Part shown: positions 1-9,613 of the stretch, piece by piece
Numbering within the stretch: the first letter of the stretch is position 1
Layout of the letters: every line of letters starts with the position of its first letter
Origin: a virus
Lineage: Duplodnaviria > Heunggongvirae > Uroviricota > Caudoviricetes
DNA length: 9,906 nucleotides
Strand: one strand, 5' to 3'
Virus record (IMG/VR): IMGVR_UViG_2563366903_000019
The notes under the pieces: generated by a model
Databases searched by the model: none
What the model was told of the DNA's origin: nothing
Seen by the model: only the letters and a program-made list of their open reading frames with translations
Translations under genes and position numbers: made by a program

Positions 1-1239
1 ATGAGCAGCGCAATTCATAGACTTAGCGACACTCTTTTACGAAAATTAAGCGGATCACCAACCACAAAAAACGCCTTTTTTAATGACGGTGGCAATCTTA
101 GCGTAAGACATTCCACCAGCGGCCTGTTAACCTGGTATTTCACTTACAGGGCCGGAACTGGTAGGCAGGTATCACCGGAACGTCTGAGACTGGGCAATTA
201 TCCCGATCTGAGCCTGAAAGCAGCCCGGGAAAAAGCAGCACAGTGTCGCGCCTGGCTGGCTGAGGGGAAAAATCCGCGCTATGAGCTTAATCGTGCTGTA
301 CAGGATGCGTTAGCCCCCGTGACAGTTAAGGACGCGCTCACTTACTGGCTTGAATCGTATGCAAAGGAAAAGCGCACTGACTACGAATCACTGAAAAGCC
401 GGATCAATAAACACATAATCAGCCAGATTGGCGCTTTGCCGTTGGAAAAATGCGAGCTACGGCACTGGTTGGCATGTTTTGACCAGATGGCAAAGCGAAG
501 CCCAGTATCTGCCGGATTTTTGCTACAGGTATGCAAACAGGCGCTTAAGTACTGCCGAAAACGACGATACGCAATCAGCAACGTTCTTGATGATATGGTT
601 GTCGGTGATGTGGGAAAAAAAGCAGAAGTGAGCGAGCGCGTACTAACAAACAAGGAGCTTGGGGAATTACTCCGCGCCCTGGATGACAAAATATTCCCTC
701 CATACTACAGCGCCCTAATTCGCCTCCTGATTGTTTTTGGATGCCGTACCACTGAGCTAAGGCGCTCTGAGGTGCAGGAGTGGGATTTTAAAGAAATGCT
801 CTGGACAGTACCGAAGGAGCACAGCAAAACGAAGGTCGCCATATTCAGGCCAATACCGGAAAGCATTTTGCCGTTCGTCACGCAACTGGTGGAGCAGAAC
901 AGACACACGGGCTTATTGCTTGGTGAACTGAAAGGACAATCTTCGGTAGCAGAGTACGGAAGAACAGCGCACAGACGAATTAATCAAGCCCCTTGGACGT
1001 TACACGATATCCGGCACACATTTACAACCATGCTGAACGATTTAGGCGTGGATCCGCATATTGTCGAGCAGCTTACAGCCCACCAGATGCCAGGGATGCA
1101 GCGAGTCTATAACCACTCCCGTTATCTTGATGCAAAACGTGATGCTCTTAATCTATGGGTAGACCGTCTCGAGCTTCTCCAGAACAATGATGAAAAAATC
1201 GTTGTTATGACCCCGCGAATTTACACCCAAAATTCTTGA
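1..1239 (+). CDS. int: Tyrosine-type site-specific integrase, P4-like family
   Basis: 412-aa ORF. N-terminal arm-binding-like region (LSD...DGG..L...Y pattern), conserved Arg in GCRTTELRR, HxxR box (LHDIRHT) and C-terminal VYNHSRYLD with the presumed catalytic Tyr. ORF begins at window position 1, so the true start could lie upstream. Confidence 0.85.
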   Translation: MSSAIHRLSDTLLRKLSGSPTTKNAFFNDGGNLSVRHSTSGLLTWYFTYRAGTGRQVSPERLRLGNYPDLSLKAAREKAAQCRAWLAEGKNPRYELNRAVQDALAPVTVKDALTYWLESYAKEKRTDYESLKSRINKHIISQIGALPLEKCELRHWLACFDQMAKRSPVSAGFLLQVCKQALKYCRKRRYAISNVLDDMVVGDVGKKAEVSERVLTNKELGELLRALDDKIFPPYYSALIRLLIVFGCRTTELRRSEVQEWDFKEMLWTVPKEHSKTKVAIFRPIPESILPFVTQLVEQNRHTGLLLGELKGQSSVAEYGRTAHRRINQAPWTLHDIRHTFTTMLNDLGVDPHIVEQLTAHQMPGMQRVYNHSRYLDAKRDALNLWVDRLELLQNNDEKIVVMTPRIYTQNS

Positions 1240-1658
1240 CAAATTACGGCTGTTTTTTCTTTAAGAGATTATAGCCGTGAATAGATCTTAGAATATCGGG
1301 GAATATCTGCAAATATCTTCTCTTTATATGTGTCAACTATCGAAAAAAATTGAAATGTCTTCTTCTGAGTTCTTATTCTCTGTTACTTGATTGTTCCAAC
1401 ACCTGATGGTTTATCTATTTGTTTTTAATGAGGTAATTCAGGTGCTATGCCAAATGACGACATTTTTTGTTGCGTCGCTTAAAAACTCGTGACACGATTT
1501 TAAACACTAACGAGCTTCTACGAACCTTAGCGAACAAAGCCTTTAGCATGGTTGTGTTTTTAATTTAAGAGGTGAAAAAGAATCTAAGTAATATCCGATC
1601 TCATATATCTACAGCTAAGAGAAAAGTTTATATACGTAATTTTTATGTAGGTTTTTGT
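1240..1658 (+). promoter_or_regulatory. AT-rich int-alpA intergenic control region (presumed alpA promoter/leader)
   Basis: About 420 bp with no credible ORF and visibly lower GC than flanking genes; three AATATC direct repeats in the 1290s-1320s; strong SD-like AAGAGGTGA around 1566-1574 with no well-spaced ATG. Confidence 0.3.
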
Positions 1659-1868
1659 ATGCGTGAAATAAATGAAGATCGCGTAATCCGTGAGGATGAA
1701 TGTCGTAAGTTAACTGGAGTGTGCCGCACTACACGTTACGAACTGGAGAAAAAAGGGCGCTTTCCGTCACGTCTTAATCTGGGCGGTCGTTCTGTAGGGT
1801 GGCTGCTGTCCGAGGTTATGGAATGGGTTAAAAGCCGGGATCGCATTAATTCAGGTAAGGCAGTGTAA
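1659..1868 (+). CDS. alpA: AlpA-family phage transcriptional regulator (small HTH protein)
   Basis: 69-aa product MREINEDRVIREDECRKLTGVCRTTRYELEKKGRFPSRLNLGGRSVGWLLSEVMEWV matches the size and pattern of AlpA-type regulators. ATG at 1659 is in frame within the longer 1572 (GTG) ORF; start choice is uncertain. Confidence 0.7.
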   Translation: MREINEDRVIREDECRKLTGVCRTTRYELEKKGRFPSRLNLGGRSVGWLLSEVMEWVKSRDRINSGKAV

Positions 1869-2538: not shown

Positions 2539-2851
2539 TATGTCAAATTACCAGTACCTGATTAATCCGCATTTTAACTGTGAGCATGATATTGCTAAAA
2601 AAGTTTATTCCGCTGCGGATGGGGCTACTGACAATATATCAATGGCTGTTGCCTCAATTGGTAACCTGATGTGGTATGCGTCAGAAAATGAGGAATATGA
2701 CGAAAAGGCCATGCGCATTGATATGGGTAATATCGGTTTGTTACTGGCAATGCTTGGGCAGTTTGATATTTCGTTACGGTGCACCATTGAAAATGCCAAA
2801 GATGCATTAAATGCTATAAAGAAAGCGAATACTGATTTAAATCGGGGATAA
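2531..2851 (+). CDS. Hypothetical protein (106 aa), low-GC accessory gene
   Basis: ORF with GGGGG 9 nt upstream; start overlaps upstream stop; GC visibly lower than neighbouring genes; no motif I can recognise. Confidence 0.6.
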   Translation: MPDMSNYQYLINPHFNCEHDIAKKVYSAADGATDNISMAVASIGNLMWYASENEEYDEKAMRIDMGNIGLLLAMLGQFDISLRCTIENAKDALNAIKKANTDLNRG

Positions 2852-2857
2852 ATAATC

Positions 2858-3157
2858 ATGAGAACATATTTATCTGGCTTGACTGCCAGCGGTTATGCAC
2901 ACCCCCAAATTATCCCCGGCGCTATTTATCTGGATAAGAACGGTAACAGAGTAACGGTAAAAGAACTGATGTTTGACCGAGTGTATTTTATCCGTGATGG
3001 CTATTCATTTCTTAGTTCGCTGAACGTGGAGATCTTTATTAGCAGATTCAGGCGGGAAATCCCGCTTTCCAGAAATAACCATGTGTCATGTATGGATGTT
3101 GATAAAAAACTACAGGAACTAAAAAACATGATTGCCGCGTGGAGAGAGCAGAAATGA
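2858..3157 (+). CDS. Hypothetical protein (99 aa), low-GC accessory gene
   Basis: Starts 6 nt after the upstream stop; its stop overlaps the primase ATG (ATGA at 3154-3157); low GC; no recognisable motif. Confidence 0.6.
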   Translation: MRTYLSGLTASGYAHPQIIPGAIYLDKNGNRVTVKELMFDRVYFIRDGYSFLSSLNVEIFISRFRREIPLSRNNHVSCMDVDKKLQELKNMIAAWREQK

Positions 3158-5277
3158 AAAAAGCGCCAAATTTAAAACACCAGCCACGTGACAAAATGAC
3201 GGAAGTCATCATTTTTGCGGGTAGTGATGCGTGGGCACATGCGAAGCAGTGGCAGGAACAGGACGGGCGACTGGCTGGCGACAGCGTGCCTCCTGTCTGG
3301 CTTGGAGAGCAACAACTTGCCGAACTGGATAAGCTGCAAATTGTGCCGGAAGGCCGAAAATCAGTACGCATATTCAGGGCCGGACATCTTGAGCCAGTAA
3401 TGATCAAGGCGATTGGTCAGAAGCTGGCGGCGGCAGGCGTACAGGATGCAAATTTTTACCCTGATGGAATGCACGGTCAGGAGGTGGAGAACTGGCGCGA
3501 ATATCTAGCCCGTGAGCGGCAGAATCTTTCTGATGGTCTGGTTATTGAGTTTCCGGTAAAGAAAAAAGATACCGGAAGCCATAGCGATGACGAATTAAAG
3601 CCACGCGTTGAAAGTCGCGCCGATGGTGTTTTCTGGGTAACGCCCAAAGTGGATAAGCAGTCAGGCGAAATTATCCGGCCTGAGACGTGGTTATGTTCTC
3701 CGCTTGAACTACTGGGAACGGGGACGATCGGTAAAGAGCATTACCGCGTGATGCGCTGGAAAAAAACCGCAAACCATGAAGTCATCACAATGGCGATCCC
3801 GTGTGGTGGTATCGGCGACCGTGACGGCTGGCGGTTACTTAAAGATCACGGGCTGAACGTGACAACCAACGGCAAATACAGGGCAATCCTGGCGGACTGG
3901 ATGCAGTTAAGCGGAAGCCATGAGGAATGGCAGTTAAGCACAACAACGGGCTGGCATTTTGGCGCGTACATCATGCCGGACGGTTCGATCATTGGTGAAT
4001 CTGAAAAACCGATCCTGTTTACCGGAAAAAGCGCCGCGATTAACGGTTATTCCGTGGCGGGCACGGCGGATGGCTGGCGCGACAGCGTGGCGCGTCTGGC
4101 TGGCGGTAATGCCTCAATGATGCTGGGTGTGGCAACGTCACTGGCAGCGCCTTTAATTGGCCTTGTGGGTGCTGACGGCTTCGGGGTGCATCTTTTCGAA
4201 CAGTCATCGGCAGGTAAGACCACCACGCAGAACATCGCATCAAGTTTATGGGGAGAGCCGGACGCGCAGCGGCTGACCTGGTACGGCACGGCGTTAGGTA
4301 TTGCCAATGAGGCCGAGGCCCATAATGACGGGCTTTTACCACTGGATGAGATAGGCCAGGCCGGAAATGCGCGGGAAGTGTCAACGTCTGCTTATACGCT
4401 GTTTAACGGTTCAGGGAAATTGCAGGGGGCGAAGGATGGCGGCAACAGGGAGATCAAACACTGGCGAACGGTGGCAATCAGCACCGGAGAAATGGACGTT
4501 GAGACATTCCTCAAAAGTGAGGGGATAAAAGTTAAGGCGGGGCAGCTTGTCCGACTGCTTAACGTTCCGATGGAAAAAGCCACGAAATTTCACGAATACA
4601 GCAACGGTAAGGAACATGCTGACGCGTTAAAGGATGCCTGGACAGCAAATCACGGGGCGGCGGGTCGTGAGTGGGTTAAATGGCTGGCAGGCCACCAGCA
4701 GGAGGCAAAGGATACGGTAAGGGAATGCCGCGAACGGTGGCGCAACCTGATACCGGAGAGCTACGGCGAGCAGGTCCACCGCGTGGGTGAACGTTTCGCC
4801 ATACTGGAGGCCGCGCTTGTGCTTTCCGGTCATGTAACTGGCTGGGTCGTGCAGGAATGCCGCGACGCGATACAGCATAACTTTAATGCCTGGGTGAAGG
4901 AGTTCGGCACGGGTAACAGGGAATTTAAACAGATGGTTGAACAGGCTGAGGCGTTTTTGTCGTCGTTTGGGTTTAGCCGCTACCTTCCGTACCCCAATAC
5001 AGATGAGCGTGATTTACCGATTAAAGAGCTTGCCGGATACAGAAAAGGGAGCATTCGCAACGAAGATGACGAGATGCGCTATTACACGTTCCCGCACGTG
5101 TTTGAGAGTGAGATAGCGAAGGGATTTAATCCGGCGCATTTTGCGCGTGCCCTGGATGCTGCCGGAATGCTGGAGAAGGGAAGCGATCGCCGATACAAAA
5201 AAAAGGCGCTGGGCAAGATTGGGGGTAAGCAGCATGTTTTTTACGTGCTGATGTTCCAGCCTGATGATGAAGATTAA
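3154..5277 (+). CDS. Primase/helicase-like replication initiator (P-loop NTPase; DUF927/P4-alpha-like Pri-Rep class)
   Basis: About 707-aa ORF from ATG 3154 (SD GGAGAGAG at 3141-3148); ORF track gives a GTG at 3139. Walker A-like EQSSAGKTT; position immediately upstream of the iteron array matches satellite replication proteins. Confidence 0.8.
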   Translation: MKKAPNLKHQPRDKMTEVIIFAGSDAWAHAKQWQEQDGRLAGDSVPPVWLGEQQLAELDKLQIVPEGRKSVRIFRAGHLEPVMIKAIGQKLAAAGVQDANFYPDGMHGQEVENWREYLARERQNLSDGLVIEFPVKKKDTGSHSDDELKPRVESRADGVFWVTPKVDKQSGEIIRPETWLCSPLELLGTGTIGKEHYRVMRWKKTANHEVITMAIPCGGIGDRDGWRLLKDHGLNVTTNGKYRAILADWMQLSGSHEEWQLSTTTGWHFGAYIMPDGSIIGESEKPILFTGKSAAINGYSVAGTADGWRDSVARLAGGNASMMLGVATSLAAPLIGLVGADGFGVHLFEQSSAGKTTTQNIASSLWGEPDAQRLTWYGTALGIANEAEAHNDGLLPLDEIGQAGNAREVSTSAYTLFNGSGKLQGAKDGGNREIKHWRTVAISTGEMDVETFLKSEGIKVKAGQLVRLLNVPMEKATKFHEYSNGKEHADALKDAWTANHGAAGREWVKWLAGHQQEAKDTVRECRERWRNLIPESYGEQVHRVGERFAILEAALVLSGHVTGWVVQECRDAIQHNFNAWVKEFGTGNREFKQMVEQAEAFLSSFGFSRYLPYPNTDERDLPIKELAGYRKGSIRNEDDEMRYYTFPHVFESEIAKGFNPAHFARALDAAGMLEKGSDRRYKKKALGKIGGKQHVFYVLMFQPDDED

Positions 5278-5299
5278 TCCCCTGTGTGAGGAAAAAAAT

Positions 5300-5615
5300 T
5301 GCGGGTTATGCGGGTTATCCTGTGTATAAGTGTATTAAGTGCATGAATATAAAGGAAACCAATAACCCGCACGTAACCCGCAAAAGGGCATTTATAACCC
5401 GCAAAAGCACGATTATAACCCGCAGGCGAATAACTGAAGTAACACCGGACAGTCATGCGTAACCCGCAGAAAAAACCCCGTTTGCGGGTTATTTTGAGCG
5501 TTTTGCGGGTTACGTGGTGAGCAAATAATAAACAGGGCGTTTTGCAAAATACTGATATAAAAGGATAAAAAATGGTTAGCACGCTAAGATAACCCAATAA
5601 CCCGCATAACCCGCA
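5300..5615. repeat. Iteron array / putative origin of replication
   Basis: About 11 copies of RTAACCCGCA in both orientations (5300-5309, 5310-5318, 5362-5371, 5373-5382, 5394-5403, 5415-5424, 5459-5468, 5483-5492, 5504-5513, 5597-5606, 5607-5615) plus an AT-rich stretch at 5520-5590, directly downstream of the replication gene. Confidence 0.75.
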
Positions 5616-5647
5616 CATGTTTCTATATATATAAATTGAGGTGGCAA

Positions 5648-5899: not shown

Positions 5900-6306
5900 C
5901 AGCACAGATAGCGGCTTACGGTCGGCTGGTGGACGACCCGCAGGTAAAACAGACCAGCAAGGGCACACCGATGACGCTGGCGCGTATGGCGGTATCACTG
6001 CCATGCAGTCAGGCACAGGACGGACAGGCGACGTTATGGCTATCGGTCATCGCATTTGGTAAGCAGGCCGACTTCCTGGCTAAACATCAAAAAGGCGACG
6101 TTGCCAGCGTATCCGGCACGATGCAGGTCAGCCAGTGGACCGGACAGAACGGGGAGACGCGTCAGGGTTATCAGGTTATTGCAGACAGCGTAATCAGTGC
6201 CCGTGCGGCACGTCCTGGCGGGAACAGACGCAAAACCACAGGCGCACAGGGTAATCAGCCACCAGCGGGAGGCGATGACCCTTACGGTGATGATATTCCG
6301 TTCTGA
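5896..6306 (+). CDS. ssb: Single-stranded DNA-binding protein (SSB family, short linker)
   Basis: 136-aa product with OB-fold-like core (IAAYGRLVDDPQV..., LWLSVIAFGKQADFLAKHQKGDVASVSGTMQVSQWTGQNGETRQGY) and the hallmark acidic C-terminal tip DPYGDDIPF. SD GAGAGGTGG upstream. Confidence 0.85.
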   Translation: MTAQIAAYGRLVDDPQVKQTSKGTPMTLARMAVSLPCSQAQDGQATLWLSVIAFGKQADFLAKHQKGDVASVSGTMQVSQWTGQNGETRQGYQVIADSVISARAARPGGNRRKTTGAQGNQPPAGGDDPYGDDIPF

Positions 6307-6316
6307 GGGGGTGACG

Positions 6317-6589
6317 ATGGTACATGACCGCATAGCGGAAGAACTCGAAGCGAAAGGATTTTACCGGAGGGCGGCGGCGCGATGGGGTGAAGTCATGCAG
6401 CTGGTGGAGACAGACAAGGAACGGCATCAGGTTACGATGCGACGGCTGGAATGTTCCAGGAAGGCACAGAGGCCACCGGAGCCGCCGGATAACTTCGGAG
6501 ACCTGAGAAAGGCAGTCGATCGCACTTATGCTGAAATGGGTATAGATGGTGTAAGCGATGAAATATGGCGTAATTACCCAGGCAGCTAA
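6317..6589 (+). CDS. PerC-family transcriptional regulator-like protein
   Basis: 90-aa product MVHDRIAEELEAKGFYRRAAARWGEVM... matching the PerC/Pch-like N-terminal motif as I recall it. SD GGGGG 5 nt upstream of ATG 6317; the ORF track's 6197 extension overlaps ssb. Confidence 0.65.
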   Translation: MVHDRIAEELEAKGFYRRAAARWGEVMQLVETDKERHQVTMRRLECSRKAQRPPEPPDNFGDLRKAVDRTYAEMGIDGVSDEIWRNYPGS

Positions 6590-6594
6590 TCAAC

Positions 6595-6618
6595 AGCCGG
6601 AGTAATCCGGCTTTTTTG
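6595..6618 (+). terminator. Rho-independent terminator
   Basis: Stem AGCCGG / CCGGCT with loop AGTAAT, followed by TTTTTT. Confidence 0.6.
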
Positions 6619-6623
6619 TACCC

Positions 6624-6667
6624 AAAAAAAGCCCGATAAGTACAGGAGGCATCTTATCGGGCTTTTG
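6624..6667. terminator. Putative bidirectional terminator hairpin
   Basis: 10-bp stem GCCCGATAAG / CTTATCGGGC (6631-6640 / 6653-6662), with an A7 run before and a T run after. Confidence 0.5.
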
Positions 6668-6710
6668 CATATGAGGTTTTTTTTGGCGCACTGACACACA
6701 TGATCGGGAT

Positions 6711-6760
6711 CATCATTTCATAATTTGCAACACAACTCAACATCATTGCATAAAATGCAA
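6711..6760. repeat. Two 20-bp direct repeats upstream of and overlapping the capsid-operon promoter
   Basis: CATCATTTCATAATTTGCAA (6711-6730) and CATCATTGCATAAAATGCAA (6741-6760), 17/20 identical, 30-bp register. Confidence 0.5.
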
Positions 6761-6773
6761 TCATGATTATAAT
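6746..6773 (+). promoter_or_regulatory. Sigma70-like promoter of the capsid operon
   Basis: -35 TTGCAT (6746-6751), 16-bp spacer, perfect -10 TATAAT (6768-6773); predicted start near 6780, about 50 nt before ATG 6830. Confidence 0.5.
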
Positions 6774-6778
6774 CAGAT

Positions 6779-6794
6779 CTGGATGAACATCCAG
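6779..6794. promoter_or_regulatory. Operator-like palindrome at predicted transcription start
   Basis: CTGGATGAACATCCAG, a 16-bp near-perfect palindrome (half-sites match 7/8) immediately downstream of the -10 element. Confidence 0.4.
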
Positions 6795-6829
6795 TTATGA
6801 TTTTTTAAGTCAAAGAGGAATTTCTTACT

Positions 6830-7036
6830 ATGGCTGAAGAGAAAAAAGGCGGTGTTTCGGTGTACATAAGCCCCGACATCGTGAAGGCGCTCAAGGAACG
6901 CCACCAGCAGAACGTAAAAGCAGGCATTGCGGCAGGACTTGATCCGCTGGCGATGGTTGAGCCGTCAACAGGCTGGCAGGTACGCGCCTATTTACGCGCG
7001 GCGCTGGGTATGAATCAGGTTCACGGGGGTGAATAA
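6830..7036 (+). CDS. Hypothetical protein (68 aa), first gene of capsid operon
   Basis: ORF with AGAGG about 11 nt upstream; its stop overlaps the capsid gene start (TAATG); no recognisable motif and no cysteines. Confidence 0.55.
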   Translation: MAEEKKGGVSVYISPDIVKALKERHQQNVKAGIAAGLDPLAMVEPSTGWQVRAYLRAALGMNQVHGGE

Positions 7037-8091
7037 TGACAGTAAAAGCAATAGCACTTAACACTAACCAGCTTTTTGCGTACCTGAATCGCGAGGATAT
7101 TGCGGAATTTAAATTCAGTCCGCTGTTTACCGCGCTGTTTTTCCCGAACGTGGCGACATTCAACACACAGGACATCATGTTAGATAACCTGGATATTGAA
7201 GAAGTCACTATGTCGGCGTTTTGTTCGCCTATGGTGGGTAGCCAGGTTCAGCGCGATAAAGGGTACGAAACAAGCATTATTCGCCCTGGCTACATGAAGC
7301 CAAAACACGAAATCGATCCATTAAAAACAATAATGCGCATGGCTGGAGAAGATCCAGCACAGCTTAACGACCCTACCTACCGCCGTATGCGCCTGATTAC
7401 TGGCAACATGCGCCGCCAGATAAACGCCATTAAAGCGCGCGTGGAATGGCTGGCGGTGAATGCGATAACGACCGGAAAAAACATCATTGAGGGCGAAGGC
7501 ATAGAACGCTATGAAATCGACTGGAAGATCCCAAGTAAAAATATCGCCAGACAGGGACATGGCAAAAAGTGGTCAGAGGCAGATAAGGAAACACACGATC
7601 CAATCTATGACATCGAGCTTTATGCTGATCAGGCTGGTTGCCCCGCAAACGTCATGATTATGGGCGCTGAGGTATGGCGAACGTTACGCAGCTTTAAAAA
7701 ATTCCGTGAGCTGTACGATCTTTCCCGTGGTTCAGAGTCCGCCGCAGAGCTGGCCTGTAAAAACCTGGGCGAAGTGGTGAGCTTTAAAGGCTATCTGGGC
7801 GATATTGCCCTTATCGTCTATTCCGGCAAATACGCCGACAGCGACGGCACAGAAAAATATTTCCTTGAGCCTGATTTGCTTGTCCTGGGCAACACCAACA
7901 ATAAAGGGCTGGTGGCCTATGGTGCGATTATGGATCAGGACGCAGTAAGAACGGGGGCAACGCAAAACATGTACTACCCGAAAAACTGGATTGAGGACGG
8001 AGATCCGGCGATTGAGTACGTGCAGACGCACAGCGCACCGCAGCCGGTTCCGGCAGATATTCGCAAATTTGTTACTGTCAAAATTGCTTAA
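7036..8091 (+). CDS. Major capsid protein, lambda gpE family (HK97 fold)
   Basis: 351-aa product aligns by eye with lambda gpE as recalled: FKFSPLFTALFF vs FKFDPLFLRLFF, PGYMKPKHEIDP vs PGYVKPKHEVNP, EDPAQLNDPTYRRMRLITGNMR vs EDPQNLADPAYRRRRIIMQNMR, YPKNWIEDGDPAIEYVQTHSAP vs YPKNWVTTGDPAREFTMIQSAP. Confidence 0.9.
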   Translation: MTVKAIALNTNQLFAYLNREDIAEFKFSPLFTALFFPNVATFNTQDIMLDNLDIEEVTMSAFCSPMVGSQVQRDKGYETSIIRPGYMKPKHEIDPLKTIMRMAGEDPAQLNDPTYRRMRLITGNMRRQINAIKARVEWLAVNAITTGKNIIEGEGIERYEIDWKIPSKNIARQGHGKKWSEADKETHDPIYDIELYADQAGCPANVMIMGAEVWRTLRSFKKFRELYDLSRGSESAAELACKNLGEVVSFKGYLGDIALIVYSGKYADSDGTEKYFLEPDLLVLGNTNNKGLVAYGAIMDQDAVRTGATQNMYYPKNWIEDGDPAIEYVQTHSAPQPVPADIRKFVTVKIA

Positions 8092-8102
8092 CGGGGGATT
8101 CT

Positions 8103-8438
8103 ATGGACACTCCATACATTGAGTTATTTGCAGGCAGTCAGCAGGTCGCCACGACGCTGGTACATTTTGCCGCTGATGCTGGCGTTATCCAGGAATTTAC
8201 CCCGCTGATGCTGGCGGACAATGGCGAGTTTAAGCCGTGGGATGGTCAGGAATCTGGCAAGGCTGTTTATCTGACTTCGTACCCCGTGGACACGTCAAAG
8301 CAGAAATCAGCACAGTGTTACAAGACGGGGATATTTAATATCGCCGCCGTAAACTGGCCTGAGAGCGCCGACACTGACGCGAAAAAATGCGCCGCCTTTG
8401 CGGGTTCTGGCGTATCCGTTCAGCCGCTGGCGCGATAA
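8103..8438 (+). CDS. Head decoration protein, lambda gpD-like
   Basis: 111-aa product with TPLMLADNGEFKPWDG and CYKTGIFNIAAVNWPESADTDAKKCAAFAGSGVSV, matching lambda gpD (TPLMLDTSSRKLVAWDG ... [36 protein letters not shown]). SD ACGGGGGA upstream. Confidence 0.85.
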   Translation: MDTPYIELFAGSQQVATTLVHFAADAGVIQEFTPLMLADNGEFKPWDGQESGKAVYLTSYPVDTSKQKSAQCYKTGIFNIAAVNWPESADTDAKKCAAFAGSGVSVQPLAR

Positions 8439-8450
8439 GCAGGGGAAACG

Positions 8451-8864
8451 ATGGCAACGAATGAAAGCATCATGGCGCTACCGCTGGCGAGTAAATTTAA
8501 AGCAGAAGCGCGGGCAATGGCTGACAGAGGTTTATCAACCTACGAGGCCGTATATCAACTCAACAAACTGGAAGAACAGGACAAGCCGCGCGCTGATGCG
8601 ATTATGGCGCTTCATGAACATAACGACTATCAGCCGCTGTTACGTGCAATGGCAAACGTGCCATGTATTAGCGTCGATAATGCTCGTGAAATCCTGAACA
8701 TGACCATAGAGCAGGAGCGCCCAAAGGTTGCACCAGAGCTTACCGCAGCCTTTGAAAACTTTATGGACATGCACAGCCCGCAAGCCGTATCAGCTGGCAT
8801 GGCGTACGATGGCAGAAACCAGGGCGATGACGGCGACATCGATCGCATGCTGAAAACCATCTGA
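8451..8864 (+). CDS. Hypothetical protein (137 aa), last gene of capsid operon
   Basis: ORF with AGGGGA 4 nt upstream, followed directly by a terminator; acidic C-terminus; occupies the position lambda gives to FI but shows no similarity to it that I can see. Confidence 0.6.
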   Translation: MATNESIMALPLASKFKAEARAMADRGLSTYEAVYQLNKLEEQDKPRADAIMALHEHNDYQPLLRAMANVPCISVDNAREILNMTIEQERPKVAPELTAAFENFMDMHSPQAVSAGMAYDGRNQGDDGDIDRMLKTI

Positions 8865-8868
8865 GACA

Positions 8869-8894
8869 AGGCCGGAGAAATCCGGCTTTTTTTT
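8869..8894 (+). terminator. Rho-independent terminator
   Basis: Stem GCCGGA / TCCGGC with loop GAAA, followed by T8; nearly identical in sequence to the terminator at 6595-6618. Confidence 0.65.
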
Positions 8895-8960
8895 ACGGGT
8901 CCTTTCCGGCATATGGACCCGTTACGGGGCGGCGACCTCGCGGTTTTTCGCTATTTATGA
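8895..8960. other. cos site: lambda-like cosQ-cosN core (cosN GGGCGGCGACCT at 8927-8938)
   Basis: ACGGGTCCTTTCCGG ... GTTACG GGGCGGCGACCT CGCGGTTTTTCGCTATTTATGA; the last 33 nt match the left end of lambda (GGGCGGCGACCTCGCGGGTTTTCGCTATTTATGA) at 32/33 from memory, and the upstream part resembles the lambda right end. Confidence 0.75.
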
Positions 8961-9070: not shown

Positions 9071-9613
9071 ATGAAATCGCACCTGATGAACAAAAAAAAC
9101 ATGGCGAAAAGCTGCCGTGTAAGTGCGACAGCGTTCGACAAGTGGGGAGTGACTCCCGTTGAACGTAAAGGCCGTGAGGCGTTTTACGATGTTGCCAGCG
9201 TGATAGACAATAGGGTTAACAATGCAATTAGCCAGCTTACAAACGACAAAGGCGATATTGATGATGATGAACTCTTACGAGTCAGGATCAGATTACTGAC
9301 AGCACAGGCGGAGGCGCAGGAACTTAAAAACGAGCGCGATCGCGGTGACGTGATCGATACTGAGTTTTGCCTGTACGCGCTTTCAAAGCTGGCGAGTCAG
9401 ATTTCATCAATCATGGACAGCCTCCCGCTTACTATGCAAAGGAGCTTCCCACAGATTACCCCCGCCATGCTGGATAGGCTTAAAAGGGAAGTGGTTAAAG
9501 CCTGTAATGCCAGTGCCAGAGTTGCCGACAACCTCCCACAGATACTGGCTGATTACTTGAAAGAAACAACCGGAAACGTACCGGAAAAGTTGCAGCCGAA
9601 TAAAGATAAGTAA
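9071..9613 (+). CDS. Terminase small subunit, lambda Nu1-like
   Basis: C-terminal two-thirds align with lambda Nu1 as recalled: LLTAQAEAQELKNERDRGDVIDTEFCLYALSKLASQISSIMDSLPLTMQRSFP vs LTRAQADAQELKNARDSAEVVETAFCTFVLSRIAGEIASILDGLPLSVQRRFP. The N-terminal HTH region is divergent. Alternative start at ATG 9086 (MNKKN..., matching Nu1 MEVNKK...). Confidence 0.85.
   Translation: MKSHLMNKKNMAKSCRVSATAFDKWGVTPVERKGREAFYDVASVIDNRVNNAISQLTNDKGDIDDDELLRVRIRLLTAQAEAQELKNERDRGDVIDTEFCLYALSKLASQISSIMDSLPLTMQRSFPQITPAMLDRLKREVVKACNASARVADNLPQILADYLKETTGNVPEKLQPNKDK

Follow-up and report, generated by a model that had tools for sequence, protein, structure and literature searches.

A probable SOS box and a conserved pair of inverted repeats overlap the capsid-operon promoter of an EcCICFT073-type phage satellite

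In staphylococci, a satellite packaging operon controlled by LexA is known: operon I of the pathogenicity islands found in Staphylococcus aureus (SaPIs), which carries the packaging module, is LexA-repressed according to Ubeda et al. (2007), as summarised in a later paper (PMC6092414). Here we describe the promoter region of the capsid operon in a 9,906-nucleotide stretch of viral DNA (Caudoviricetes; IMG/VR record IMGVR_UViG_2563366903_000019), which as a whole we call the window. The window belongs to the EcCICFT073 type of phage-inducible chromosomal islands (PICIs) and is a lambda-cos phage satellite in Escherichia coli; in the capsid module of EcCICFT073 itself, the homologues of the lambda E-like capsid and decoration proteins are c1499 and c1500 (PMC6092414). 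As far as the summary of SaPI operon I goes, both systems comprise a satellite morphogenesis or packaging operon that has its own promoter, is insulated from the early genes and stands, here by prediction, under the SOS repressor, so that its expression coincides, or here would coincide, with induction of the helper prophage. Measured against the same summary, the window differs in its Gram-negative host, its E. coli-type box with CTG-N10-CAG spacing and its homologues of lambda E and D; it also has an extra pair of operators, and its LexA box is predicted in some lineages only.

The extra operators recall a plasmid system. CopG of pMV158 is a ribbon-helix-helix repressor of 45 amino acids encoded by the first gene of its own operon; its targets are TGCA-N5-TGCA, at a site that overlaps the -35 box, and further sub-sites on the same DNA face (PMC2724298). 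The CopG/Pcr arrangement and the window have in common a TGCA-N5-TGCA core over the -35 element, a small protein encoded by the first gene and several sub-sites on one face. They differ in three respects. The small open reading frame (ORF) that heads the capsid operon encodes 68 amino acids with a 12-residue loop between the helices, and neither its sequence nor its fold matches CopG significantly; the sub-sites in the window are spaced 9, 21 and 9 bp instead of one turn each; and the genes downstream encode capsid proteins here and the replication initiator in pMV158.

We propose, with moderate confidence, that the capsid operon is transcribed from a sigma-70 promoter that would be repressed both by LexA and by a second protein bound to two operators, R1 and R2 (Table 1), for which the product of the small ORF is the best candidate. 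The early operon is closed by two terminators and the capsid genes therefore depend on a promoter of their own; the promoter elements occupy the only sizeable intergenic gap, immediately after both terminator-like hairpins. The first of these is present in most relatives, and the second, whose 14-nt arms are 100% complementary, is likewise conserved. A first-pass annotation of this DNA, made from the letters alone, had placed here a near-consensus promoter, TTGCAT-16 bp-TATAAT, with two 20-bp direct repeats and a start-site palindrome, and all of these elements lie where it put them. The description as near-consensus is apt for the -10 hexamer only: the -35 hexamer agrees with the consensus at half of its positions, which is why a standard promoter scan with a threshold of 4/6 for that hexamer leaves the promoter unlisted. 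The spacer runs from 6752 to 6767, the promoter lies 56 nt ahead of the operon's first gene, and transcription is predicted to start at about 6780-6782. The -10 hexamer reads TAWAAT in every lineage compared (TAAAAT in the L096 and L098 lineages introduced below), while relatives have TTGCAC or TTGCAA at -35; the TTG of the latter is conserved but is also part of operator R2. Such a promoter should serve the capsid operon and, judged by its sequence, should be active on its own.

Matches of this kind mean little when taken singly. Of shuffled windows, 19% contain TTGNNN-N16-18-TATAAT and 46% a perfect 7+2+7 palindrome, so that each is within chance when considered alone; we judge the set of elements to be real because of its context and its conservation, and not because of single-element statistics. 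Relatives were compared in three sets. The close set consists of 80 IMG/VR satellite contigs whose capsid proteins are 91-100% identical. The divergent set (capsid identity 59-68%) comes from Salmonella (L095), E. coli (L096/L097), Edwardsiella (L098/L099) and Lelliottia (L145), to which Pluralibacter (L148) was added through its small-ORF homologue, and the third set comprises satellites that lack the small ORF (L083-L085, L093, L146 and L147; about 53-56% identity). Of 5426 complete E. coli genomes, about 900, roughly one in six and Nissle 1917 among them, retain the block at 6712-6829, which is also kept in the 80 satellite contigs and in other genera. Against L095, L096/L097 and L098, the 4-fold degenerate sites of the capsid gene are 25-37% identical, which means that they are saturated, while the 125-bp promoter block is 57-73% identical. 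Its invariant columns are those of R1, R2, the -10 hexamer, the T-run and the ribosome-binding region, where a AGTCAAAGAGG block does not vary across lineages, and conservation ceases upstream of 6711. Because the promoter block has been retained while the 4-fold sites are saturated, these alignments show clear purifying selection on the promoter and operator elements. The sigma-70-type promoter overlapped by conserved operator-like elements that the first-pass annotation had recognised is thus borne out, with TAWAAT throughout and the TTG of the -35 hexamer inside a conserved palindrome.

The two 20-bp direct repeats lie at 6711-6730 (CATCATTTCATAATTTGCAA) and 6741-6760 (CATCATTGCATAAAATGCAA), are identical at 17 of 20 positions and stand 30 bp apart. 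One of them overlaps the -35 hexamer, as had been noticed before; the functional unit that the alignments suggest, however, is shorter than the 20-mer. What is conserved across lineages within each repeat is a 15-bp inverted repeat, TTGCA-N5-TGCAA (often ATTGCA-N5-TGCAAT), present in two copies. Every one of the 82 loci in the close set has the upstream copy, R1, which recurs as ATTTCA/ATTGCA-N5-TGCAA in the relatives from Salmonella, Edwardsiella and Pluralibacter and in the divergent E. coli ones. The downstream copy, R2, is perfect, can be extended to an 11+11 palindrome at 6741-6765, and is invariant in a six-lineage alignment in which the 4-fold sites of the capsid gene are saturated. Read as tTGCAtaaaaTGCAa, it contains two TGCA boxes 5 bp apart that take in the -35 hexamer, which is the layout of a CopG-type operator. 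The centres of R1 and R2 are 30 bp apart, and 32 bp apart in Edwardsiella. The repeat motif exceeds chance, with three matches against 0.14 expected and none of 200 shuffles reaching three, and TTGCA-N5-TGCAA was found nowhere else in the window, the alpA promoter region included. Lying over the -35 hexamer and the spacer, R2 is placed more as expected for a repressor than for an activator of class I or class II, and since the -10 element of the core promoter is perfect or 5/6, dependence on an activator is not apparent. The earlier suggestion that the repeats and the palindrome are repressor operators keeping the operon off is supported to this extent: the conserved elements overlap the promoter, in a layout better suited to repression than to activation.

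The perfect palindrome at the predicted start, CTGGATG-AA-CATCCAG (6779-6794), is probably an SOS box. The predicted LexA operator that contains it begins 4 nt past the -10 hexamer and overlaps the predicted start. We scored it with a symmetrised matrix derived from 18 E. coli boxes (listed in PMC3009722), on which it reaches 16.1 bits; the known boxes score 6.6-27.6 bits when each is left out in turn. Within the window it leads by 7 bits, with 8.7 for the runner-up, and the matrix found no other SOS-like site in the window. Its score is reached by 1.5% of shuffled windows, and 1.17 Mb of unrelated viral DNA contain five sites of at least 16 bits (about 4 per Mb), some of which are obviously true SOS boxes. 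The first-pass annotation had considered the palindrome probably not a canonical LexA site because it has CTGG in place of CTGT. That doubt finds no support, given the score within the known range, a canonical relative in Lelliottia and the ruvA box (CGCTGGATATCTATCCAGCA) and cho box (CACTGGATAGATAACCAGCA), both of which carry CTGG/CCAG on both halves (PMC3009722). The half-sites CTGGAT/ATCCAG of the ruvA box, located upstream of ruvA in MG1655, are identical to those of the window, the cho box resembles it in having CTGG/CCAG on either side, and the window spacer ATGAACAT is one base away from the recA spacer ATGAGCAT. The window departs from the known E. coli SOS boxes in the T that precedes CTG, where most boxes and most related islands have A. 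That the window has no second SOS-like site is consistent with the report that alpA expression depends on the helper but is independent of SOS (PMC6092414).

The relatives strengthen this assignment. A box of at least 16 bits is present in 80 of 82 related loci, most of them scoring about 18.5-20.2, and the homologous boxes of Salmonella, Pluralibacter and Lelliottia score 20.1, 17.7 and 20.9 bits. At the homologous position Lelliottia carries the canonical CACTGTTTTTTCATACAGTT (CTGT-N8-ACAG), Salmonella retains CTGG-N8-CCAG, and Pluralibacter, where the box lies about 11 bp further downstream, retains the CTG-N10-CAG spacing and has lost inner stem pairs. The variants found among relatives approach the LexA consensus, through A before CTG, a change of G6785 to A, and CCAG to ACAG (three loci); the last of these breaks a potential RNA stem and improves the match to LexA. 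Variation of this kind is more readily explained by a DNA site that a LexA dimer reads than by an RNA hairpin.

According to the mechanism that we favour, the sigma-70 promoter would be held off by two repressors. LexA would occupy the SOS-like palindrome, and DNA damage would derepress the capsid genes. DNA damage, through the SOS response, is also the signal that induces lambdoid helper prophages. The second protein would bind both copies of TTGCA-N5-TGCAA, with R2 blocking the -35 hexamer and spacer and R1 assisting from 30 bp upstream; as this distance corresponds to about three helical turns, the two sites could plausibly be bound cooperatively from one face of the DNA. We speculate that the two repressors might form a lock with two keys, in which the small-ORF product is an orphan CopG-like repressor inactivated by a product of the helper, and which opens only when SOS induction and helper coincide. 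SaPIs offer a precedent, as their helpers' proteins inactivate Stl. This extension is a doubtful one.

For the second repressor, our preferred candidate, still a tentative one, is the small-ORF product as a CopG-like ribbon-helix-helix autorepressor that would bind R1 and R2. The small ORF is the one gene that is always co-inherited with the R1/R2 promoter, and it follows this promoter directly as the first gene of the operon, which is the gene order of CopG. Its AlphaFold model has a beta element and two helices (mean predicted local distance difference test score, pLDDT, 75). Neither its fold, nor profile searches, nor hhalign against CopG gave a significant match; the only alignment that hhalign returned, which is not significant, places residues 9-21 (VSVYISPDIVKAL) on the ribbon and first helix of CopG (LTITLSESVLENL). 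The pattern GGVSVYIS-PDIVKALKE of the small ORF can be set beside KRLTITLS-ESVLENLEK of CopG, in the same register as that alignment. One IMG/VR contig (L068, locus at about 2680-4056) is a mosaic island, with a capsid gene 91% identical to that of the window next to a promoter and small ORF of the divergent L096 type (66%). The mosaic places a recombination joint at the boundary between small ORF and capsid gene, and since promoter and small ORF are both of the L096 type beside a window-like capsid gene, the two move as a unit. Other candidates for an island regulator were rejected: perC and the DUF4222 gene are not universally co-inherited, and the C-terminus of the 219-residue ORF among the early genes is Icd-like and not that of a repressor.

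Several observations weigh against the scheme of two repressors. The promoter itself has only a 3/6 match at -35 and a 16-bp spacer, and the window's own box, at 16.1 bits, is the weakest of the common variants, most relatives reaching about 18.5-20.2. The divergent E. coli lineages L096/L097/L068 and Edwardsiella L098 have R1 and R2 but no LexA-like box, so that LexA control would be a lineage-specific layer added to a universal R1/R2 layer. Pure autorepression by a small protein does not alone explain dependence on the helper phage. Lastly, TTGCA-type repeats lie upstream of the capsid gene also in satellites without a small ORF, and a shared external factor could therefore bind them.

This last point is the core of the strongest rival explanation, which we nevertheless consider unlikely, namely that R1 and R2 are bound by a factor from outside the capsid module, such as host CytR or helper CII, acting as repressor or activator, and that the small ORF serves a different purpose, such as capsid assembly. 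The recognition sequence of CytR is the octamer GTTGCATT, arrayed in direct or inverted orientation, and that of CII is TTGC-N6-TTGC. R2 can be read as ATTGCATA-a-AATGCAAT, with octamer matches of 6/8 and 7/8, and across relatives the arrays are flexibly direct or inverted, as are CytR operators; Pluralibacter L148 even has a perfect AATGCAAC-N13-GTTGCATT, of a class described as optimal for CytR (PMC3454398). Satellites without the small ORF (L146/L147, L083-L085 and L093) carry three direct ATTGCAY repeats with a period of 10-11 bp, which in L084 and L093 also read TTGC-N6-TTGC-N6-TTGC, and one common external factor would account for both repeat layouts. CytR, however, needs flanking sites for CRP, none of which occurs with two or fewer mismatches near R1 and R2; the sole site with three mismatches overlaps the -10 hexamer and is at chance level. 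R2 is moreover oriented opposite to the classical TGCAA-N2-3-TTGCA, the elements lie across the core promoter and not between two activator sites, and there is no evident biological rationale for nucleoside control. As to lambda, which was rejected as a source of the motif, TTGCA-N5-TGCAA occurs at none of its regulatory sites, and an activator seems unneeded because the core promoter looks strong.

In these satellites (E. coli L146/L147 and L083, from Kluyvera, together with L084, L085 and L093), the three repeats lie about 60-120 nt upstream of the capsid gene and are accompanied by an extended -10 element, TGATAnnAT. A scan with a fixed triple-repeat pattern gave, for the most part, tandem repeats of an unrelated kind. 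An AlpA-family gene is third in the capsid operon of L146 and of L083, the two satellites that were scanned.

The presence of this AlpA-family gene downstream of TTGCA repeats bears on a further and less probable explanation, in which AlpA or PerC binds the repeats and either activates the capsid operon or silences it. Gram-negative PICIs have AlpA as their master activator (PMC6092414), perC stands immediately upstream in the window, and both proteins had been named as candidates in the first-pass annotation. Both prove to be poor ones. Many islands with the same promoter, that of Nissle 1917 among them, lack perC; the AlpA proteins of the window and Nissle are 27% identical, though R1, R2 and the box are nearly the same in sequence, and the alpA promoter region has no TTGCA-type motif, although AlpA is reported to autoregulate.

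Still less probable, in our view, is a reading of the palindrome at the level of RNA, as a hairpin in the 5' leader followed by a U-run. This would form an attenuator that a Q-like antiterminator of the helper reads through, downstream of a constitutive promoter such as lambda pR'. The likeness to lambda pR'-qut consists in a strong, constitutive-looking promoter before morphogenetic genes, a protein-binding element between -35 and -10, and a hairpin with T-run shortly downstream; Q systems combine a binding element between -35 and -10 with a pause element that resembles a -10 hexamer and with a terminator downstream (PMC6606751). A terminator scan indeed reports 6779-6794 followed by TTATGATTTTTT, a -10-like TATGAT is found at 6796-6801, and the Pluralibacter hairpin ACTGGA...TCCAGT, with T6 directly after it, falls entirely inside the predicted transcript. 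In the window, however, the predicted start falls inside the 5' arm, so that the hairpin would be truncated, and 6 nt separate the stem from the U-run. The hairpin is absent in lineages L096 and L098, TATGAT is not conserved, neither a conserved pause element nor a conserved terminator of the qut kind was found, and the CCAG to ACAG variants break the stem and yet improve the LexA match, so that the palindrome behaves like a DNA site. Nor is there similarity to phage late promoters: a distant BLAST search with 6590-6835 against 50,697 phage records gave short, AT-rich chance matches, the best of them to a T1-like phage (E 0.02), and Rfam reported no family at gathering score, a sub-threshold match to AsxR covering only the terminator. 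A link to the AlpA antiterminator of Pseudomonas aeruginosa was rejected, as that protein, whose residue numbering extends to at least 142 and which has an N-terminal ring and a 21Q-like fold, looks unlike the 68-98-residue PF05930 AlpA proteins of the islands (the sequences were not compared).

That the repeats are iterons of the island's replication origin is very improbable in spite of the AT-rich intergenic stretch and the helical spacing of the motifs, as R1 and R2 persist beside three unrelated initiators (DUF927, D5_N/DUF5906 and AAA_25) and as the iteron-type origin is expected, from a 9-mer, TGCGGGTTA or in complement TAACCCGCA, that occurs at least 12 times in both orientations, at 5299-5616, right after the DUF927 primase gene, which is where PICI origins are located (PMC6092414).

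Promoters, SOS boxes and palindromic operators are ordinary in themselves, and a LexA-controlled satellite packaging operon is known from staphylococci; the conserved TTGCA-N5-TGCAA pair with its co-inherited small ORF appears to be a new variant. In the searchable literature we found no description of LexA control of a Gram-negative PICI capsid or packaging operon, and the searchable papers, which treat AlpA and the early genes and name LexA in their reference lists only, do not describe the timing of the packaging and capsid genes. If the proposed control is true, SOS regulation of a satellite morphogenesis operon would have arisen in both Gram-positive and Gram-negative satellites, and the operator pair would define a second regulator common to islands of Escherichia, Salmonella, Edwardsiella and Pluralibacter. 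As about one-sixth of complete E. coli genomes contain the element, Nissle 1917 included, and as the module is that of EcCICFT073, the scheme is directly testable in strains already in use.

Table 1. Features of the window, with promoter elements numbered relative to the predicted transcription start
Feature	Position	Strand	Remarks
Tyrosine integrase gene	1-1239		Early/replication genes
alpA	1572-1868		Early/replication genes
DUF927 primase gene	3139-5277		Early/replication genes
PerC-family gene	ends 6589		Directly upstream of the terminator-promoter gap
Intrinsic terminator	6595-6617	+	Stem AGCCGGAGTAATCCGGCT, then T-run; closes the early unit (alpA to perC)
Second terminator-like hairpin	6627-6666		AAAAGCCCGATAAG ... 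CTTATCGGGCTTTT; bidirectional, insulates the capsid promoter
Operator R1 (candidate)	6716-6730		TTTCAtaattTGCAA; centre about -57; imperfect left half TTTCA
Operator R2 (candidate)	6746-6760		TTGCAtaaaaTGCAA; centre about -27; covers -35 and most of the spacer
-35 hexamer	6746-6751	+	TTGCAT; 3/6 against TTGACA (TTG only)
-10 hexamer	6768-6773	+	TATAAT; 6/6
Predicted LexA operator (SOS box)	6777-6796		ATCTGGATGAACATCCAGTT; about -3 to +17; contains the palindrome 6779-6794
T-run and Shine-Dalgarno region of the small ORF	6801-6820	+	TTTTTTAAGTCAAAGAGGAA
Small ORF, 68 amino acids	6830-7036	+	First gene of the capsid operon; orphan family PHROG 3255
Lambda-E-like major capsid gene	7036-8091	+	Pfam Phage_cap_E 9.6e-50; PHROG match
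Lambda-D-like decoration gene	8103-8438	+	HDPD 2.6e-17; PHROG match
137-residue ORF	8451-8864	+	Last ORF of the capsid operon
Capsid operon terminator	8868-8889		Ends the operon; terminator scan

Besides the genes listed in Table 1, the early and replication genes of the window include a DUF4222 gene and a gene for single-stranded DNA-binding protein (SSB). The ORF of 219 residues (1879-2538) ends in an Icd-like host cell-division inhibitor domain (NCBIfam, E 2.5e-18), and the stretch that it covers is occupied by several separate genes in relatives. The PerC ORF is listed at 6197-6589 as a GTG ORF of 130 residues that overlaps the SSB gene. As its Pfam match begins at residue 41 and a close relative is annotated with 90 residues, the true start of perC is probably the ATG at 6317.

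The stretch between perC and the promoter varies among islands. At the place that corresponds to 6590-6625 of the window, between perC and the conserved terminator-promoter block, many islands of the enterohaemorrhagic E. coli (EHEC) type carry a segment of about 360 bp with extra small hypothetical genes; others have a different gene in place of perC, and the boundary of conservation is the first or the second terminator. A further palindrome containing two GATC sites, ATGATCGGGATCAT, lies just upstream of R1 at 6700-6713, within the interval marked in the first-pass annotation; the L077 and L036 groups have not conserved it, and it probably falls outside the control region. A search of genome contigs with the capsid protein alone gave no match.

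Within the capsid operon, the small ORF overlaps the start of the capsid gene at 7036. The last ORF, of 137 residues, aligns with the C-terminal part of a head-maturation-protease family (phrog_53, E 7e-10). In lambda, the corresponding C-terminal region of the protease is the nested scaffold Nu3, and for this reason the product may be a scaffold-like protein. Downstream of the operon, the cos site at 8895-8960 is nearly identical to lambda cosQ-cosN, in the order TTACGGGTCCTTTCCGG, GTTACG and GGGCGGCGACCTCGCGG, with a 12-nt cohesive end at about 8927-8938, and it precedes the gene for a Nu1-like small terminase (terS, 9071-9613).

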